Part shown: in pieces, positions 8,400 to 61,909 of the stretch
Layout: each line of letters begins with the position of its first letter
Numbering within the stretch: the stretch's first letter is position 1
NCBI RefSeq assembly: GCF_964213995.1
Contig: NC_135818.1
Location: 67,456,001 to 67,520,000 of the forward strand
Source of the DNA: Mustelus asterias
Lineage: Eukaryota
DNA: 64,000 nt
Direction: 5' to 3'
Notes under the pieces: model-generated
Database searches by the model: none
Seen by the model: the letters and a program-made list of their open reading frames with translations, nothing else
What the model was told of the DNA's origin: nothing
Program-made: the position numbers and the translations under genes

Positions 8400-8662
8400 T
8401 TAAAATTCGCATTGAACCAATCCATGAGTTGTTAGCACTTGGCCTTGGAGCTGAGTGTGTTTGGGCTGAGGAGAAAAGGTTCTGATGAGGTTATTCGATG
8501 TGAAGAGAAGGGGCTTTGGGGCTGTTCTTGCTTGGATCTGCGGTCCATGACATTCAGGGAGCAAAAGGGGAAACACCAATAATTCAGTGGCAATGTGATC
8601 AAGGGCTGAAGTGAAGGAGCGATGGAGCATATCAACAGATAGCTGCACAGGTGGATGCAGAG
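8400..8662 (-). mobile_element. Old L2-like LINE ORF2 relic, the target of the Gypsy insertion (probably continuing at ~13385-13500)
   Basis: Degenerate translation VDMLHRSFTSALDHIA resembles the L2 linker region. Confidence 0.4.
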
Positions 8663-8957
8663 TGTGGTGAACCATCGTTGGTTCACCACTGGGGGTTGTT
8701 ACTATGTTACTGTTGGGCTAGGGTGTTGTTACTGTGGGGGTTGTACAATGTTGTTGGGTTAGGGTGTTTACCTGTTATAAGAGTTATCATGGCACATTCC
8801 AGTGGGGTCCCGCCTCCGGTGGCGAGGTATAAGACCCCCTGCTCCGGCAGGACCCCTTCAGTCTGAACTGGTGTATTCGTGTTAGTAGTTCCATTGTTAC
8901 TCTATTAAAGCCTTCAATACCGAAGCCTTGGTTCCACGTGCTTATTGTCGCGCATCA
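8663..8957 (+). repeat. 5' LTR (295 bp)
   Basis: Identical to 13085-13379 except T8803 versus C13225. Confidence 0.98.
8828..8862 (+). promoter_or_regulatory. Putative LTR core promoter: TATAAG plus TCAGT initiator
   Basis: TATAAG at 8828-8833 and TCAGT at 8858-8862, about 30 nt apart. Confidence 0.55.
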
Positions 8958-8958
8958 A

Positions 8959-8971
8959 TTTAATAGAGTAA
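8959..8971 (+). other. Non-tRNA PBS-position element, complementary to LTR 8897-8909
   Basis: TTTAATAGAGTAA is the exact reverse complement of TTACTCTATTAAA. It lies 1 nt after the LTR end and there is no TGG. Confidence 0.75.
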
Positions 8972-9019
8972 ACAGAAAACTCACAGCTGTACAACAAGAA
9001 GAAAAAAAAAACAGAGAGT

Positions 9020-12000
9020 ATGGAACAGATTCTAAAACCGGATCGTCTGACACTGGACCCACATGCGGTCGGTGCAGCTAACACATTCGACCATTGGTGG
9101 AAGTGCTTTGAGGACTACCTGGCAGCCTCGGTAGCTATCACTACAGACAGTGATAAACTCCAGGTCCTCCACGCAAGGGTAAGCGACATGATTTACCTAG
9201 CCATTCGTGCAGCTCCCACTTACCTGGGTGCCGTTGAGCTCCTAAAAAAAAGATACACTATGCCACCCAACGAGATACACGCTCGTTACCTCCTCGCTAC
9301 ACGACGTCGGCAGTCGGGCGAAACCATGGAGGACAATGCCAATGAGCTCCTGCAGCTTGCCAGGGGTTGCGATTGTAAGGACGTATCAGCCGAACAGTAT
9401 ATGTACGACCTCGCCCGAGACGCGTTCGTAGCAGGGGTAGGGTCCTCGTACATCAGGCTTAAATTGCTGGAAAAGGGGAAACTCGACTTGACCCAAGCAA
9501 TGGAGATGGCCGTGATGCTGGAGGCGGCGTCGAAGAGCTTGGCGCTGTACCCCGAGGACCACGTGCAGTCAACGTGGTTGGAGCAAGCTCAGCTCCCTCC
9601 TCGCCCCGCTAACCCACGCTCCCAGATCGATTCGACGACGGCGGCAGCTCCAGGTGGCCAGCGATGCTATTTTTGTGGTGGGGCCAAGCATCCACGGCAA
9701 CAGTGTCCGGCAAGAACGGCAATCTGCAGCCAGTGCGGTAAAAAAGGCCACTACGGCAAAGTCTGCAGGTCCAAACCTAAAAACGGCAGTGCAGCTTGTA
9801 ACCCTCCAGAACGGAGACAATCTCCTTCGGCGTCGCAGTACCCACGAGGTCCGACCACGTGCGATCCCAGGATGGCGCCATCGTGGCTGACAGAGGAGGA
9901 GGAAGACCACCAGGAGTCGCTGCGCTTGGCGCCCTCGCCCACGTGCGATTCATGGCCATCATGGTCCACGACGACTAGGAGCGACCAGCAGGGGTCCTCA
10001 GCATCCACATCGGCAGCATGCAGTGACGCCCAGGGGCCAACGGTGGCGTCGATCTCCCTGGATCAGACCAGGCACTACAGACTTGAACATTCTATGATGG
10101 ATATAAAGGTTAGTGGTAGAACTGTGAATTGTCTGTTTGACAGTGGAAGCACCGAAAGTTTCATACACCCTGAAACTGCTAAAAGGTGTGGACTCCGGGT
10201 TCTCCCTGCCAAGCAGACAATTTCCATGGCATCACGGTCCCGGTCTGTACCGATCCAAGGACGATGTATGGTAACTCTTGAGGTACAGGGCACAATTTAC
10301 GAGCAATACAGGCTCCTTGTGTTACCTCACCTTTGCGCGCCAATTCTCCTCGGACTAAACTTTATGGTCCACATGAAGAGTGTGATCCTACAGTACGGTG
10401 GGCCACTCCCTTCACTGGCAGTAGGGAATCAGCCGCAGCCTCCAAATTGCCCAAAGCGCCCCGCATGCAATCTATCCACCCTGAAAATCACTACACCATC
10501 CCTTTTTAAAAATCTGGTACCTGGCTGCAAGCCCATCGCTACTAAAAGTAGGCGTTACAGCGCTGAGGACCGGATCTTTATTAGATCTGAGGTTCAGCGG
10601 CTCCTCAAGGAAGGGATCATACAGGCCAGTGCTAGTCCGTGGAGAGCGCAGGTCGTGGTAGTCAAAAGCGGGAACAAACCTCGGATGGTCATCGACTATA
10701 GTCAGACCATTAATCGTTATACACAGCTGGATGCGTATCCTCTCCCGCGCATTTCTGATATGGTCAATCAGATTGCGCAGTACCGAGTGTTTTCTACCAT
10801 AGACCTTAAGTCCGCCTACCATCAACTCCCCATCCGCCCAGAGGACCGACAATATACGGCTTTTGAGGCGGATGGTCGTCTATACCAATTCCTCAGGGTT
10901 CCATTTGGTGTCACCAATGGGGTCTCGGTCTTCCAGCGTGCTATGGACCGAATGGTGGACCAGAACGGGTTGCGGGCTACCTTTCCGTACCTGGATAACA
11001 TCACCATCTGCGGCCATGACCAGCAGGACCACGACACGAATCTCCAACACTTTCTACGCACTGCATCTCGCCTGAATCTGACCTATAACAGGGAGAAGTG
11101 CGTATTCCGTACGCGTAGGTTAGCCATCCTCGGATACGTGGTGGAAAACGGGGTCATTGGCCCTGATCCAGACCGTATGCGCCCACTCACTGAACTTCCC
11201 TTGCCCGCTAGCACGAAAGCACTGAGGAGATGCCTCGGGTTCTTTTCGTATTATGCACAGTGGGTCCCCAACTACGCGGACAAAGCTCGTCCGCTCATTA
11301 AGTCCACGACCTTCCCACTTACGCCGGAGGCCCAATTGGCCTTCAAGGTTTTGAAGAGCGACATATCGAAAGCCACGATGCACGCGGTGGATGAATCCAT
11401 TCCTTTCCAGGTGGAGAGTGATGCATCTGACTTCGCCCTAGCCGCCACACTAAACCAGGCAGGCAGGCCCGTCGCGTTCTTTTCCCGCACCCTTCAAGGC
11501 CCAGAAATTCGGCACTCAGCGGTGGAGAAGGAGGCTCAGGCCATTGTGGAGGCAGTCAGACACTGGCGCCATTACCTGGCAGGGAAGCGGTTCACCCTGA
11601 TCACGGATCAACGATCCGTGGCGTTTATGTTCAGTAACACGCAGAGGGGCAAGATCAAGAACGATAAGATCTTGCGGTGGAGAATTGAGCTCTCCACCTA
11701 TAATTACGATATTATGTATCGTCCAGGGAAGCTCAATGAGCCCTCGGATGTCCTCTCGCGCGGAACATGCGCCATCATGCAGGAGGACCGCTTGAAGGCT
11801 CTCCACAATGATCTGTGTCATCCTGGAGTCACCAGACTCTACCACTTCGTCAAAGCCCGCAACCTGCCTTACTCGGTGGGGGATGTCAGGTCAGTGACTA
11901 GAAGCTGTCGGATTTGCGCAGAATGCAAACCACACTTTTATCGACCAGACCGGGCACAATTGGTCAAGGCCACTCGCCCTTTTGAGAGGCTGAGTGTGGA

Positions 12001-13009
12001 TTTTAAGGGCCCCCTTCCCTCAACGGACCGGAATGTCTATCTCCTCAACATAATAGACGAGTATTCCCGGTTTCCGTTTGTTGTCCCCTGTGCGGACACG
12101 TCGACTGCCACCGTCATCAAGGTTTTCAGTGAACTTTTTACCCTGTTCGGGTACCCCTGCTACATTCATAGCGACAGGGGCTCGTCGTTCATGAGCAACG
12201 ACTTGAGGCAATTCCTGCTCTCATTCGGGATTGCCTCTAGTAGAACCACGAGCTACAACCCTAGGGGTAACGGACAGGTGGAAAGGGAGAATGCTACAGT
12301 CTGGAAGGCTGTCCTACTGGCACTGAAATCCAGGGGCCTTCCAGTCTCCCGTTGGCAGGAGGTCCTTCCAAATGCGCTCCATTCTATCCGCTCCCTCCTG
12401 TGTACGGCAACCAATGCTACTCCCCACGAGAGGATGTTCTCATTCCCTCGGAAGTCGTCCTTGGGAACCTCATTGCCAGCCTGGTTGACGTACCCAGGAC
12501 CCGTCCTTCTGCGGCGACATGTGAGGGCTCGCAAGTCCGACCCCTTGGTCGAACCGGTCCAACTCCTCCACGCCAACCCTCAGTATGCCTATGTGGCATA
12601 TCCTGACGGGCGAGAGGACACTGTCTCCATTAGAGACCTGGCGCCCGCAGGGGACGTAGCAACTCCTGTCGCTCCTATTCCCCCAGTCACGAATCCACTA
12701 CTCCTCATTACTTCCCCAGACGTGGCGCGGTCAGCACCGGGACCAGTGCATAACACTTTTACTCCCATGTACAGCTTGCCTGAGACTCGGAGATCGGCGC
12801 CACCATCATCACCACCACCACTACCACCAAACGTTCCAGGATCCCCTGCACCATCGCCTCACCAGGGCCGGCCGGCCCGGGAGTCCTTGAGGGGACAGCC
12901 AGACGTTGCTTTGGAAAGAGCGCCACCACAAGCACCTGCTCCGGTTTCGCAACCGGTGTTGAGGAGATTGCAGCGTCGGTGCGGTCCTCCAGACCGTCTG
13001 GACTTGTGA
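9020..13009 (+). CDS. gag-pol: Gag-Pol polyprotein (1329 aa): gag with two zinc knuckles, aspartic protease, RT, RNase H, integrase
   Basis: Zinc knuckles CYFCGGAKHPRQQC and CSQCGKKGHYGKVC; protease LFDSGS; RT IDLKSAYHQ, PFG and YLDN; RNase H SDASD, EKEA and TDQ; integrase HHCC zinc finger with D(VDFKGP)-D(SDRGSSF)-E(GQVER). No stops or frameshifts. Confidence 0.97.
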   Translation: MEQILKPDRLTLDPHAVGAANTFDHWWKCFEDYLAASVAITTDSDKLQVLHARVSDMIYLAIRAAPTYLGAVELLKKRYTMPPNEIHARYLLATRRRQSGETMEDNANELLQLARGCDCKDVSAEQYMYDLARDAFVAGVGSSYIRLKLLEKGKLDLTQAMEMAVMLEAASKSLALYPEDHVQSTWLEQAQLPPRPANPRSQIDSTTAAAPGGQRCYFCGGAKHPRQQCPARTAICSQCGKKGHYGKVCRSKPKNGSAACNPPERRQSPSASQYPRGPTTCDPRMAPSWLTEEEEDHQESLRLAPSPTCDSWPSWSTTTRSDQQGSSASTSAACSDAQGPTVASISLDQTRHYRLEHSMMDIKVSGRTVNCLFDSGSTESFIHPETAKRCGLRVLPAKQTISMASRSRSVPIQGRCMVTLEVQGTIYEQYRLLVLPHLCAPILLGLNFMVHMKSVILQYGGPLPSLAVGNQPQPPNCPKRPACNLSTLKITTPSLFKNLVPGCKPIATKSRRYSAEDRIFIRSEVQRLLKEGIIQASASPWRAQVVVVKSGNKPRMVIDYSQTINRYTQLDAYPLPRISDMVNQIAQYRVFSTIDLKSAYHQLPIRPEDRQYTAFEADGRLYQFLRVPFGVTNGVSVFQRAMDRMVDQNGLRATFPYLDNITICGHDQQDHDTNLQHFLRTASRLNLTYNREKCVFRTRRLAILGYVVENGVIGPDPDRMRPLTELPLPASTKALRRCLGFFSYYAQWVPNYADKARPLIKSTTFPLTPEAQLAFKVLKSDISKATMHAVDESIPFQVESDASDFALAATLNQAGRPVAFFSRTLQGPEIRHSAVEKEAQAIVEAVRHWRHYLAGKRFTLITDQRSVAFMFSNTQRGKIKNDKILRWRIELSTYNYDIMYRPGKLNEPSDVLSRGTCAIMQEDRLKALHNDLCHPGVTRLYHFVKARNLPYSVGDVRSVTRSCRICAECKPHFYRPDRAQLVKATRPFERLSVDFKGPLPSTDRNVYLLNIIDEYSRFPFVVPCADTSTATVIKVFSELFTLFGYPCYIHSDRGSSFMSNDLRQFLLSFGIASSRTTSYNPRGNGQVERENATVWKAVLLALKSRGLPVSRWQEVLPNALHSIRSLLCTATNATPHERMFSFPRKSSLGTSLPAWLTYPGPVLLRRHVRARKSDPLVEPVQLLHANPQYAYVAYPDGREDTVSIRDLAPAGDVATPVAPIPPVTNPLLLITSPDVARSAPGPVHNTFTPMYSLPETRRSAPPSSPPPLPPNVPGSPAPSPHQGRPARESLRGQPDVALERAPPQAPAPVSQPVLRRLQRRCGPPDRLDL

Positions 13010-13070: not shown

Positions 13071-13084
13071 AAAGGAGGGGTGAA
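13071..13084 (+). other. Polypurine tract
   Basis: AAAGGAGGGGTGAA directly before the 3' LTR. Confidence 0.85.
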
Positions 13085-13379
13085 TGTGGTGAACCATCGT
13101 TGGTTCACCACTGGGGGTTGTTACTATGTTACTGTTGGGCTAGGGTGTTGTTACTGTGGGGGTTGTACAATGTTGTTGGGTTAGGGTGTTTACCTGTTAT
13201 AAGAGTTATCATGGCACATTCCAGCGGGGTCCCGCCTCCGGTGGCGAGGTATAAGACCCCCTGCTCCGGCAGGACCCCTTCAGTCTGAACTGGTGTATTC
13301 GTGTTAGTAGTTCCATTGTTACTCTATTAAAGCCTTCAATACCGAAGCCTTGGTTCCACGTGCTTATTGTCGCGCATCA
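13085..13379 (+). repeat. 3' LTR (295 bp), ATTAAA poly(A) signal at 13326-13331
   Basis: Direct repeat of the 5' LTR. Confidence 0.98.
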
Positions 13380-13519
13380 CAGAGCCTGAGGAGAAAGTGC
13401 CGGAGTGTGTATTGGAAGAGAGGGAGTTTCTGAAGTGGATGTTGCTGTCGGGAACACAACTATCCCTGAGGCTTTTGTTTCCTCATAATATGCAGACATT
13501 GGAGACCCTAATAATCACA

Positions 13520-14311
13520 GAGTCATAGAATCCTACAGTGCAGAAGGAGGCCATTCAGCTCATCGAGTCTGCACCAACCACAATCCCACCCAGGCCCTAT
13601 CCCCATAACCCCATACATTTACCTTAATTGATCCCCCTGACAGGAAGGGGCAATTTAGCATAGCCAATCCACCTAACTCGCACATCTTTGGACTGTGGGA
13701 GGAAACCGGAGCACCCGGAGGAAACTCACGCAGACATGGGGAGAACGTGCAAACACCACACAGTCACCCAAGGCCAGAATCGAACCTGGGTCCCTGGTGC
13801 TGTGAGGCAGCAGTGCTAACCACTGTGCCATTGTGCTGCTCAAAGTGGCCATTTGGCCCATCGAGTCTGCACCGACCACAAACCCACCCAAGTCCTATCC
13901 CCATAACCCCATGCATTTATCCTAACTAGTCTCTCTGACATTAAGGGGCAATTTAGCATGGCCAATGCACCTAACCCACACATCTTTGGACTGTGGGAGG
14001 AAACCAGAGCACCCGAGGAAAGTTTATGAAGTTTATTTATTTATTAATCATAAGTAAGGCTTACATTAACGCTGCAATGAAGTTACTGTGAAATTCCCCT
14101 AGTCGCCACACTCCAGCGCCTGTTCGGGTCAATGTACCTAACCAGCATGTCTTCCAGAATGTGGGGGAAACCAGAGCACCCAGAGGAAACCCATGCAGAC
14201 ATGGGGAGAATGTGCAAACTCCACACAGACAGTGGCCCAAGCCGGGTATCGAACCCGGGTCCCCAGCGCTGTGAGGCAGCAGTGCTAACCACTGTGCCAC
14301 CATGCCGCCCC
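13520..14311 (-). mobile_element. Cluster of three SINEs: HE1-like (13520-13832), partial HE1-like (13846-14020), type B (14024-14311)
   Basis: Reverse-complement matches to the SINE heads and tails. Confidence 0.85.
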
Positions 14312-25789: not shown

Positions 25790-28035
25790 GAGGAGAAAGT
25801 TTGGTCCCAAACCAGTGTCCTCTGTTTGAACAGAGGGAAATATGATAGGATGAGGGATGAATTGGCTAAGGTAGACTGGGAGAGCAGGCTGGCAGGTAGG
25901 ATAGCTGAGGAACAGTGGAGGATTTTTAAGGAGATCCTTTTCAGTTCTCAGCAAAAATATATTCCAGCAAAAAACAAGGATTGTAAGAAAAGGGAGAACC
26001 AGCCGTGGATAACGAAGGAAATAAAGGAGAGTATTAAAATAAAAACAGCTGCGTACAGAGTGGCCAAAAATAGTGGAGAAACAAGTGATTGGGAAAAATT
26101 TAAGAAACAACAAAGAGAGACTAAGAAAGCGATAAAGAAAGGAAGGATAGACTATGAAGCTAGGCTAGCAATTAATATAAAAATGATAGTAAAAGTTTTT
26201 ATAAATATATAAAAAGGAATAGAGTGGCTAGAGTGAATGTTGGACCCTTGGAGGACGAGAGGGGGGAGTTAATAGTGGGAAATGAGGATATGGCTGAGTC
26301 TTTAAATAAGTTTTTTGTGTCGGTCTTCACGGTGGAGGACACAAATAGTTTGCCAAATATTAACGATAGAGGGTTGGCAGCAGGAGAAATACTTAATACG
26401 ATTAATGTTACCAGAGAGGCAGTGCTGGGTAGACTAATGGGACTGAAGGTGGACAAGTCCCCGGGTCCGGATGGAATGCATCCCAGGGTATTGAAAGAAA
26501 TGTCAGAGGTAATAGTGGATGCGTTAGTGATTATTTATCAAAACTCGTTGCATTCTGGGGTAGTGCCGGTTGATTGGAAAACGGCTAATGTTACGCCGCT
26601 GTTTAAAAAAGGAAGGAGACAAAAGGCGGGTAACTATAGGCCGGTCAGCTTAACGTCTGTAGTAGGGAAAATGCTGGAATCCATTATTAAAGAGGAGATA
26701 GCAGGGCATCTGGATAGAAATGGTTCGATCAATCAGACGCAGCATGGATTCATGAGGGGAAAGTCATGCTTGACGAACATGTTGGATTTTTATGAAGATG
26801 TGACTAGGGTGGTTGATGGAGGAGAACCGGTGGATGCGGTGTTTTTGGATTTCCAAAAGGCATTTGATAAGGTGCCCCATAAAAGGCTGCTGAAGAAGAT
26901 TAGGGCACACGGAGTTGGGGGTAGTGTGTTAAAGTGGATTGGGGACTGGCTATCCAACAGGAAGCAAAGAGTCGGAATAAATGGGTGTTTTTCCGGTTGG
27001 AGGAAGGTAACTAGTGGCGTGCCGCAGGGATCGGTACTCGGGCCGCAACTGTTTACCATTTATATAGATGATCTGGAGGAGGGGACGGAGTGTAGGGTAA
27101 CGAAGTTTGCAGACGACACAAAAATAAGTGGAAAAGTGAATCGTGTGGAGGACGGAGAAGATCTGCAGAGAGATTTGGACAGGCTGAGTGAGTGGGCGAG
27201 GATATGGCAAATGGAGTATAACGTTGATAAATGCGAGGTTATACACTTTGGAGGAAATAATAACAAATGGGATTACTATCTCAATGGAAACAAATTAAAA
27301 CATGCCACCGTGCAAAGGGACCTGGGGGTCCTTGTGCATGAGACGCAAAAGCCCAGTCTGCAGGTACAACAGGTGATCAAGAAGGCAAATGGGATGTTGG
27401 CCTATATCGCGAGGGGGATAGAATATAAAAGCAGGGATGTCTTGATGCACCTGTACAGGGCATTGGTGAGGCCGCAGCTGGAATACTGTGTGCAGTATTG
27501 GTCCCCTTATATGAGGAAGGATATATTGGCATTGGAGGGAGTGCAGAGAAGGTTCACCAGGTTGATACCGGAGATGAGGGGTTTGGATTATGAGGAGAGG
27601 CTGAGGAGATTGGGTTTGTACTCGTTGGAGTTTAGAAGGATGAGGGGGGATCTTATGGAGACTTATAAGATAATGCGGGGGCTGGATAGGGTGGAGGCGG
27701 AGAGATTCTTTCCACTTAGTAAGGAAGTTAAAACTAGAGGACACAGCCTCAAAATAAAGGGGGGTCAGTTTAAGACAGAGTTGAGGAGGAACTTCTTCTC
27801 CCAGAGGGTGGTGAATCTCTGGAATTCTCTGCCCACTGAGGTGGTGGAGGCTACCTCGCTGAATATGTTTAAAGCGCGGATGGATGGATTCCTGATCGGT
27901 GAGGGAATTAAGGGTTATGGGGATCAGGCGGGTAAGTGGTACTGATCCACGTCAGATCAGCCATGATCTTATTGAATGGCGGGGCAGGCTCGAGGGGCTA
28001 GATGGCCTACTCCTGCTCCTATTTCTTATGTTCTT
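25790..28035 (+). mobile_element. Young 5'-truncated CR1 LINE (2.25 kb)
   Basis: ORF2 remnant, 3' UTR and TTCTTATGTTCTT tail; ATAA TSD. Confidence 0.95.
26224..27945 (+). pseudogene. CR1 ORF2 reverse transcriptase domain (open for 573 aa; lacks endonuclease; one upstream frameshift at ~26180)
   Basis: KSPGPDGMHPRVLKE, NYRPVSLTS, FLDFQKAFDKVPH, GVPQGSVLGP, KFADDTK. Confidence 0.92.
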
Positions 28036-60249: not shown

Positions 60250-61118
60250 TATAAGAGCATAAGAACATAAGAACTAGGAGTAGGCCATCTGGTCCCTCGA
60301 GCCTGCTCCGCCATTCAATGAAATCATGGCTGATCTTTTTGTGGACTCAGCTCCACTTACCCGCCTGCTCACCGTAACCCTTAATTCCTTTACTGTTCAA
60401 AAATTTATCTATCCTTGCCTTAAAAACATTCGATGAGGTAGCCTTAACTGCTTCACTGGGCAGGGAATTCCACAGATTCACAACCCTTTGTGTGAAGAAG
60501 TTCCTCCTCAACTCAGTCCTAAATCTGCTTCCCCTTATTTTGAGGCTATGCCCCCTCGTTCTAGTTTCACCCGCCAGTGGAAACAACTTCCCTGATTCTA
60601 TCTTATGTATTCCCTTCATAATCTTATATGTTTCTATAAGATCTCCCCTCATTCTTCTGAATTCCAATGAGTATAGCCCCAGTCTACTCAGTCTCTCCTC
60701 ATTAGCCAACCCTCTCAACTCCGGAATCAACCTAGTGAATCTCCTCTGCACCCCCTCCAGTGCCAGTATATACTTTCTCAAGTAAGGAGACCAAAACTGT
60801 ACACAGTACTCCAGGTGTGGCCTCACCAGCATCTTATACAGCCGCAACATAATCTTGTTGTTTTTAAACTCCATTCCTCTAGCAATGAAGGACAAAATTC
60901 CATTTGCCTTCTTAATTACCTGCTGCACCTGCAAACCAACTCCTTGAGATTCCTGCACAAGGACACCCAGGTCCCTCTGCACAGCAGCATGCTGCAATTT
61001 TTTACCATTTAAATAATAGTCCATTTTGCTGTTATTCCTACCAAAATGGATGACCTCACATTTACCAACATTGTACTCCATCTGCCAGACCATCGCCCAC
61101 TCACTTAGACTATCTATA
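60250..61118 (-). mobile_element. Young CR1 3' fragment (open 248-aa ORF2 C-terminus) nested in a Harbinger-like repeat (~60055-61505)
   Basis: WQMEYNVGKCEVIHFG..RPHLEYCVQFWSP..WNSLP; (CATAAGAA)n tail. Confidence 0.92.
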
Positions 61119-61909
61119 TGCTGCTCGGTGGAAGATTAATTGAGTCACTTAAGGGCACCTTGGCCATTGACATACCCTCTCCGCGGGTTCATCCCTAGGA
61201 AAGGCCACCCCACGTCCGATTGGGCTAGCAGCTCTTGTGGGGTGGGGCAGGCCGCCATACTTAGTATGGACAGCGGTGTGGGCGGTGGCCACTCCACTGA
61301 TCCCCATCGGGAATTTGCCTCCTCGGATCCCACCGCAGCCTGAAGCAGGATTGCCTCCTGCTTTTGGCCCCGGTGGATCTGAGGGGGGTGTGAGGGGAAG
61401 GCGGGAGAGGAGGTGGGGAGGAAATGAGCATGTTTGGGGGTGGGAAGGGGTATGAGTGTGTTTGGCATGAAGGGGGGCCTCAGCCAGCCTGGTAAAATTC
61501 AGCCCATTGTAACAGAATGCGACCGGGGAGCACGGGTTTAAACTCTTCACCTTGTAAAGAATTTTTCAAGGGTCTTTAACTCCTAAATCCTAGATGTTGG
61601 AGCTTGTTATGGTGGATAAGACAAGAAACGTCCCAATGTGGAAAACCTTAGCGTGACAAAGGGAAGTAAAAATTCTGATTGAGAATGATGACATGTAATT
61701 TTACTGAGAAGATTTTATTTTATGGCTCTATAAATGGGTCACTTGGGAATAATAACCAGTTTGTTTGGAATCATAGACAGCTAGTGAAAGCTGGCAAAAC
61801 TAAAATAGGTTTGGATACCTTCCAGAATCACAGAATTTCAATAGTCACTTGCAGAGGACATAAAACCTGGTTAAATGTGTACAGGATGCAGAATAATTCT
61901 AATGTAAGC

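Follow-up and report, generated by a model that had tools for sequence, protein, structure and literature searches.

A Gypsy retrotransposon of Mustelus asterias that probably primes reverse transcription with its own RNA, and the genomic fossils of fold-back at its primer-binding site

Results

An intact young Gypsy element

The window analysed here is a stretch of 64,000 nucleotides of Mustelus asterias (contig NC_135818.1), within which lies an intact young Gypsy retrotransposon:

8658..8662 and 13380..13384, + strand: 5-bp target-site duplication (TSD), CAGAG, the same five bases on both sides
8663..8957, + strand: 5' LTR, 295 bp, with TG...CA ends
9020..13009, + strand: gag-pol as a single ORF of 1329 aa (Gag with two CCHC knuckles, protease, reverse transcriptase, RNase H, integrase)
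13071..13084, + strand: polypurine tract (PPT) and 4-base spacer before the 3' LTR, similar in relatives
13085..13379, + strand: 3' LTR

The LTRs (8663-8957 and 13085-13379) are 99% alike, and the order protease, reverse transcriptase (RT), RNase H and integrase, the TG...CA LTR ends, the PPT and the short TSD are all those of Ty3/Gypsy elements; the RT of Ty3 is the best solved-structure match. The family is young: the best 150 Gag matches in the same genome are 96-100% identical, and one junction pattern alone has 359 matching places there. Named protein relatives come from a ray, a catshark, a woodlouse, a mantis shrimp and Trichinella, and no relative was found among the viral contigs searched.

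In a quick RT/RNase H tree of 78 rows, with unnamed outgroups and no named Tf1, sushi, Mag or Cigr-1 sequence, 68 rows fall into one clade (SH-aLRT 100) on a long stem. This clade stands apart from the rows with chromodomain or Tf2-type SH3 domains and from the K02A2.6-like (mosquito protein) rows, the sister relation of the latter to the element clade being weakly supported. Both Chromo and SH3_Tf2-1 were found in outgroup P0052; the domain search of the element's ORF gave no match to either. That the element is not a chromovirus, as originally predicted, agrees with both the domain search and the tree; its 'Mag-like' label stays unproven, as the elements form a separate clade in a tree that holds no Mag reference.

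The very start of the LTR (8664-8689) carries a 26-bp inverted repeat that is 92% complementary, and an A-rich leader tract (8990-9012) varies in length among young copies, the distance from the primer-binding site (PBS) to the ATG being 49-64 nt. Around the element lie tRNA-derived SINE-like repeats and LINE-like RT fragments (621-763, 2304-2447, 13527-13841, 26176-27945 and 60347-61135).

Self-complementarity at the primer-binding position

The features that concern priming lie within and just after the 5' LTR, with one counterpart in the 3' LTR:

8897..8909, + strand: LTR arm, the inferred primer end, with an ATTAAA hexamer at 8904-8909 and an inferred cut at 8909/8910
8910..8957, + strand: U5-side stretch from arm to LTR end; GCC follows the arm in 127 of 133 copies, and the loop is 47-57 nt
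8958, + strand: one-base spacer between LTR end and PBS, A in 131 of 133 copies
8959..8971, + strand: self-complementary PBS, from sequence comparison
13319..13331, + strand: 3' copy of arm and poly(A) hexamer, an alternative primer candidate

As the original prediction had it, 8959-8971 is the exact reverse complement of 8897-8909 (13 bp) and starts one base past the 5' LTR end, no TGG of a tRNA-type PBS follows the LTR, and the ATTAAA hexamer closes the arm, its last base pairing with 8959. The extension by further pairs across one bulge, also predicted, does exist in the window copy, but it is a derived state: the bulge is a one-base insertion of this sub-lineage that breaks pairs 14-15, and the majority of copies form a clean 15-bp helix without it. 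As the insertion has been inherited uncorrected, any corrected core is at most 13 nt long. When the LTR was base-shuffled 5000 times, no shuffle offered the post-LTR position a complement longer than 10 bp, against the 13 observed. A 96-nt segment folds with z = -3.24, none of 200 shuffles being as stable; longer segments are no more stable than their shuffles (131 nt, z -0.80; 171 nt, z -0.09).

The PBS begins with TTT in 131 of 133 copies and with TGG in none. When the twelve common PBS 12-mers were compared with 26 distinct host tRNA sequences, a partial set of Lys, Thr, Pro, Tyr and Val types only, the best complement was 4-6 nt, in line with the predicted lack of a tRNA match, and no Rfam family matched within 8600-9100. 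Contig C16 of the same genome (L311-L340) holds tandem arrays of tRNA-Lys/Thr genes at a spacing of ~1.8 kb.

The pairing is kept while its letters change

Two sets of relatives were compared. Of 80 metagenome loci, 21 had a candidate LTR pair, and 20 remained once L100, whose candidate was a neighbour's repeat, had been left out. A helix of 11-19 bp lies at or beside the same register in 18 of these 20; of the exceptions, L129 has no helix, and in L093 only the 3' arm gives full pairing. Eleven metagenome loci without an LTR pair show merely 3-10 bp of complement. The own-genome set comprised 140 stretches (20 picked for interesting variants, 60 young and 60 older) plus the window, 141 in all, of which a 9-of-15 match rule retained 133 junction copies and dropped eight. 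A perfect run of at least 12 occurs in 109 of the 133. Among 71 older copies, positions 1-12 are paired in 63-71, position 16 in 12, and the three positions inward in only 0-2. Over positions 8-12 of 26 representatives, the own arm pairs in 124 of 130 cells, against 1508 of 3250 with the arms of other families. The covariation that the original prediction called for among homologues is thus present, pairing being kept with different letters in 18/20 metagenome and 133/141 own-genome elements, and by this comparison the arm:PBS pairing is clade-wide and conserved through changing letters.

In the young family (89 copies by 12 positions), 70 cells carry paired changes, three a PBS-only change and one an arm-only change. 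The paired changes represent four distinct events: 8903/8965, then 8901/8967, then 8906/8962, which follow one another along L215, L214, L209 and L216, and 8902/8966 in L247. The stepwise copies are just 31-40 substitutions apart in 4.4 kb, and since neighbours in the series differ by ~0.7%, chance double hits are very unlikely: either templated copying or strong selection is needed. The direction of any such copying is less simple. L203 and L231 carry the PBS change of L247 with unchanged arms, which counts against a simple arm-to-PBS direction, and L249 has another PBS change. Where the two LTR arms of an old copy are unlike, the PBS follows the 5' arm in L172, L293 and L310, and the 3' arm in L179, L185 and L285. 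With respect to the linkage of arm type to U3/U5 markers, the young family is a simple stepwise series, and the older one is blurred by age and recombination. A single T/G arm site in the older family (L179, L180, L185, L282 and L355) shifts between haplotype backgrounds and between both LTRs, which suggests frequent recombination or conversion at that site.

A predicted transcription start upstream of the arm

Whether the arm is the beginning of the transcript or lies within it depends on the promoter, for which the following features were predicted:

8828..8834, + strand: TATA box (predicted), spaced 31-34 nt from the initiator in most own-genome families
8858..8862, + strand: initiator (Inr) motif TCAGT, with a predicted start at 8860, from the motif only
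8888..8894, + strand: R segment complementary to the gag start (9020-9026), a predicted second helix of 7 bp

Among own-genome families the distance from Inr to arm end varies from 47 to 74 nt while the TATA-Inr spacing is kept, and there is no TATA ~30 nt before the arm. The R sequence upstream of the arm complements the gag AUG and the next codons (in the window, L286, L271 and L181). One compensated change separates young from older families at the third base of codon 2: the pair is A:T in all 62 young copies, whereas of the 69 older ones 53 have G:C and nine have G facing T. Against shuffles, the mean for this R:AUG helix is 5.8 vs 4.1 in own-genome families, above chance, and 4.3 vs 4.2, not above chance, in metagenome families. 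Such pairing recalls the U5:AUG switch of retroviruses. Taken together, the kept TATA/Inr spacing and the upstream R:gag pairing suggest that the arm is internal to the transcript, with a start ~50 nt before the arm end; the originally predicted primer downstream of the start is therefore backed by a conserved, if motif-based, TATA/Inr pair across own-genome families.

Masking of the poly(A) signal

The same helix had been proposed to hide the poly(A) signal of the 5' LTR while leaving the 3' copy free. Folding of own-genome representatives, of which ten could be scored and an eleventh could not, predicts this in all ten, the hexamer being 0-5% unpaired in the 5' copy vs 16-99% in the 3' copy; for the window element the predicted values are 5% and about half. 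The 5' arm:PBS helix itself is predicted in cis with a probability of 0.91-0.99. The proposal does not extend to the whole clade. All 13 own-genome representatives have the hexamer at the end of the arm, yet only seven of the 13 from metagenomes do, the other six having hexamer-less arms (two of them with a hexamer 11 and 32 nt downstream). With these six arms, masking cannot be the reason for the helix, and we regard it as probably lineage-limited.

Fold-back fossils

Four pattern searches for extensions of the PBS yielded 31 loci, in 27 of which, from five families, the PBS continues as the reverse complement of the LTR; we refer to these as fold-back fossils. Four of the seven matches of the loosest pattern (L371, L372, L375 and L376) were dropped as ordinary elements. 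In L234 the PBS runs on as LTR complement for 21 nt and then rejoins the leader. Five of the 27 (L342, L348, L353, L365 and L370) are full palindromes in which an LTR, a single A and an inverted LTR, extending from the arm end to LTR base 1, lie inside a direct 5-bp TSD. Other fossils include eight that are truncated, five that are complex (two with TSDs) and three with short extensions returning to leader or gag. L363 carries the same fold-back junction after a 3' LTR, a place with no PBS in the genome, and in L352 (extended as L357) the fold-back passes the PPT and enters the internal region: in L357, U5 is joined to arm, U3, PPT and 2.7 kb of internal sequence, all in reverse complement, and the short side begins 3 nt away from the predicted start. 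The extended PBS of L355 is unlike the element's own LTR arm. For the young family the rate is 3 fossils vs 359 junction matches, and an LTR-circle-type junction had 0 matches there.

As insertions, the palindromes are ~400-540 bp long and have persisted, their arms now 0-10 substitutions apart. Four rearranged elements, L359 (= L351), L360 (= L350), L361 (= L356) and L362, contain a fold-back junction as well as internal parts that are inverted or deleted; the TSD of L351 encloses one U5 end and one U3 end, and in L356 the LTR and the PBS belong to different variant types.

The TSD and the two U3 ends of a palindrome imply that integrase acted on a cDNA whose plus strand had ended inside the PBS and folded onto the arm. 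As the primer copy in plus strong-stop DNA is here complementary to the LTR, the primer has the sequence of the arm. In this way the fossils mark the post-LTR site as the working primer site, though plus-strand fold-back also explains them whichever arm primed. We rejected an assembly artefact as the source of the palindromes, given the same junction in four families, the direct 5-bp TSDs and arms that have diverged by 0-10 substitutions. When L342 was compared with three sequencing runs (contigs, of unrecorded kind), the junction of flank and LTR was spanned in one, and the inner junction was bridged by no listed piece. Template switching by host replication at an integrated LTR was likewise rejected for the five, as it would leave internal sequence and create no new TSD.

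A second class of product, counted among the 27 fossils, speaks to the position of the cut. L364, L366, L367 and L369 are single LTRs with a 24-nt insert exactly between arm and GCC, consisting of a T and the final 23 nt of U5 in reverse complement, and mostly matching each copy's own U5 variant; the TSDs are perfect in L364 and L369 and have one mismatch in L366. On the simplest reading, minus strong-stop DNA would have stopped at GCC, then folded onto the R-U5 hairpin and carried synthesis on into its primer; a double template switch by the plus strand is an alternative source. Among one-armed remnants the breakpoints are scattered, with L354 breaking exactly at GCC and the others 5-89 nt into the stem or inside the loop. 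The inserts and L354 favour, without proving, a cut in the 5' copy at 8909/8910, and they name no enzyme.

Discussion

The element pairs a 12-15 bp arm of its LTR with its PBS in a fixed register, the pairing is conserved while its letters change, and fold-back products are joined at that same register. We consider it most likely, with a probability of roughly two in three, that reverse transcription is primed by the element's own RNA after a cut where the arm ends on its 3' side (8909/8910). The originally predicted self-priming by an LTR segment thus gains strong support, at the level of sequence, from covariation across and within families and from the fold-back fossils.

We posit the following course of events. 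The transcript would start near 8860, ~50 nt before the cut; the arm would pair with the PBS, and the RNA would be cut after the arm, by RT/RNase H on the analogy of Tf1. The capped 5' fragment could then prime a minus strong-stop DNA of 49 nt ending at the cut, which would jump to the 3' end of the RNA by means of the sequence that separates the poly(A) hexamer from the poly(A) site. Since such a transfer window is needed, the cut would have to lie upstream of the poly(A) site, and perhaps this need is the reason that arm and hexamer coincide. Plus strong-stop DNA would read on into the primer, and as this primer copy and the arm of its own LTR are complementary, we propose that it sometimes folds back, giving rise to palindromic insertions and, now and then, to a PBS rewritten from the LTR. 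That the PBS can be rewritten by the LTR is evident from the short extensions. Such rewriting explains the tight compensation and, by the same token, means that compensation alone is no proof of selection: where templated correction occurs, covariation need not reflect selection. Such correction is not automatic here, as the PBS of Ty3 and Ty1 is, according to PMC5371799, not perpetuated by primer copying. Hiding the 5' poly(A) hexamer would be a likely side benefit wherever the hexamer is in the arm.

How do other explanations fare? The strongest of them, although we consider it unlikely, is self-priming from the arm's 3' copy (13319-13331) or from a different RNA molecule, the RNA 3' end being cut or trimmed to the arm and the minus strand running through an uncut 5' R to the cap. 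The 3' arm is identical and less paired in folding, the PBS of some old copies follows it, the extended PBS of L355 differs from its own arm, and the junction of L357 passes through U3, PPT and 2.7 kb of internal sequence. This last could, however, also result from fold-back at the right end of a finished cDNA. The breakpoints at GCC make priming from the 3' copy, which the original prediction had also entertained, less probable than cutting of the 5' copy: L364, L366, L367, L369 and L354 stop at the base after the arm, as if the 5' template ended there. It would further require the loss of the poly(A) tail and about 20 nt, against a 5' helix for which folding in cis gives such high probabilities. 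Less probable again is a helix that is only regulatory, hiding the 5' poly(A) signal and, together with the R:AUG helix, acting as a switch for translation or packaging, whilst some other RNA primes and the complementarity is maintained by selection or by fold-back repair at the DNA level. The difference in hexamer exposure between the two LTR copies of the ten folded representatives, the hexamer in every own-genome arm examined and a second helix over the gag AUG would suit this reading. On the other hand, the six metagenome arms without a hexamer (including the two with it downstream) still have the helix in its usual register, masking gives no reason for a start exactly one base past the LTR end, TSD-bounded palindromes require plus strands that ended inside the PBS site, and there is no other primer site beside the LTR.

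Ordinary Tf1-type self-priming, in which the true start would be at the arm (~8895-8899) and the TATA/Inr a second or unused promoter, fits a corrected core of only 12-13 nt, which is near the 11-nt primer of Tf1 (PMC7175516). It seems improbable all the same, considering a TATA-Inr spacing that is kept while the distance to the arm ranges over 47-74 nt, the lack of a TATA ~30 nt before the arm, and the compensated pairing with the gag start of sequence lying upstream of the arm. Most remote of all is a host tRNA, tRNA half or other small RNA as primer, with the LTR match incidental. Half-tRNA primers exist in Copia lineages (PMC6317226), but this genome alone contains at least 12 distinct PBS 12-mers, almost all of which match the LTR of their own element, and the comparisons with the 26 tRNA sequences and with Rfam point the same way.

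Returning to self-priming by an RNA cut in its 5' copy, a broader proposal can be put forward tentatively, as one that we would rate slightly below an even chance: that a widespread, separately evolved clade of animal Gypsy elements primes with a capped leader of ~50-75 nt, cut from its own transcript at the poly(A) signal, so that one helix provides the primer, fixes the strand-transfer window and shuts off the 5' poly(A) site, whilst fold-back of plus strong-stop DNA rewrites the PBS and leaves fossils that map the cut to one base. Self-priming has been treated as a mark of the Tf1/sushi chromoviruses, plus a predicted case in plant Copia. Is tRNA-free priming ancestral, or was it invented repeatedly, a question raised in PMC3601003? 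If the proposal is true, a second and abundant animal Gypsy clade with an internal primer bears on this origin, or these origins, and its members would presumably escape control by tRNA fragments. A self-complementary PBS also explains why PBS finders miss these elements. Moreover, TSD-bounded palindromes and strong-stop inserts make intermediates of reverse transcription readable from genome sequence alone, and the fossils give exact positions for tests of RNA ends.

Comparison with known systems

The window element resembles Cigr-1 and Mag in being animal, non-chromoviral and of a single ORF, a likeness by description, no reference sequence having been compared. We also take it to be similar to Cigr-1 in size and in its Gag. 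Cigr-1 is placed under Mag in a reference table of PMC6238403, the main text of which does not mention a PBS. Self-priming is tied in the accessible parts of the literature to Tf1/sushi, Tcn1 and a plant Copia lineage (PMC3601003, PMC6238403, PMC2582038, PMC6317226, PMC7175516, PMC5445492, PMC4600332, PMC10085805, PMC5371799), and our search, with older subscription papers, Repbase and GyDB outside its scope, found no description of the present clade as self-priming.

In the fungal GalEa Copia elements a conserved hairpin site replaces the PBS (PMC5445492), and they share with the window element an inverted repeat at the PBS position without a tRNA PBS; GalEa is, however, a Copia lineage whose two arms both lie after the LTR, and its authors found no complement in the LTR. 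Self-priming has been predicted from sequence for Tcn1 (a plant Gypsy element) and for TAR, Houba and Osr-1 (Copia) (PMC6317226), as it is here, which places the trait outside Tf1/sushi at least in Copia, but those elements belong to plants and other lineages, and no link to a poly(A) signal is described for them in the part of the source at hand. For Ty3, plus strong-stop DNA is described as copying 12 nt of the primer and then being displaced as a free strand (PMC5371799); a displaced plus strand with a primer copy of ~12 nt would supply just the substrate for fold-back, although Ty3 is primed by tRNAi-Met, and the copy of that primer does not complement the Ty3 LTR.

The closest parallel is with Tf1, whose RNA is cut to give a self-primer of 11 nt (PMC7175516), and with Tf2, Tj1 and the Tf1/sushi group at large: the PBS lies right after the 5' LTR, is complementary to RNA of the element's own LTR and offers no tRNA site, and the core pairing is 11-15 nt (PMC7175516, PMC4600332, PMC10085805). 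In contrast to that group, the window clade is without a chromodomain and has a separate RT clade, and in many of its families the arm ends at the poly(A) hexamer. As primer, an arm ~50 nt inside the transcript is predicted rather than the first 11 nt, and no three-duplex 'pretzel' of the Tf1 kind is predicted, pairing between the region downstream of the PBS and the loop being 0.0 in all ten scored representatives. The element thus appears to work like Tf1, yet by chromodomain, tree or predicted pretzel it is not a Tf1/sushi member. What is new here are the 27 genomic fold-back fossils and what would be an internal-primer version of Tf1-type self-priming.
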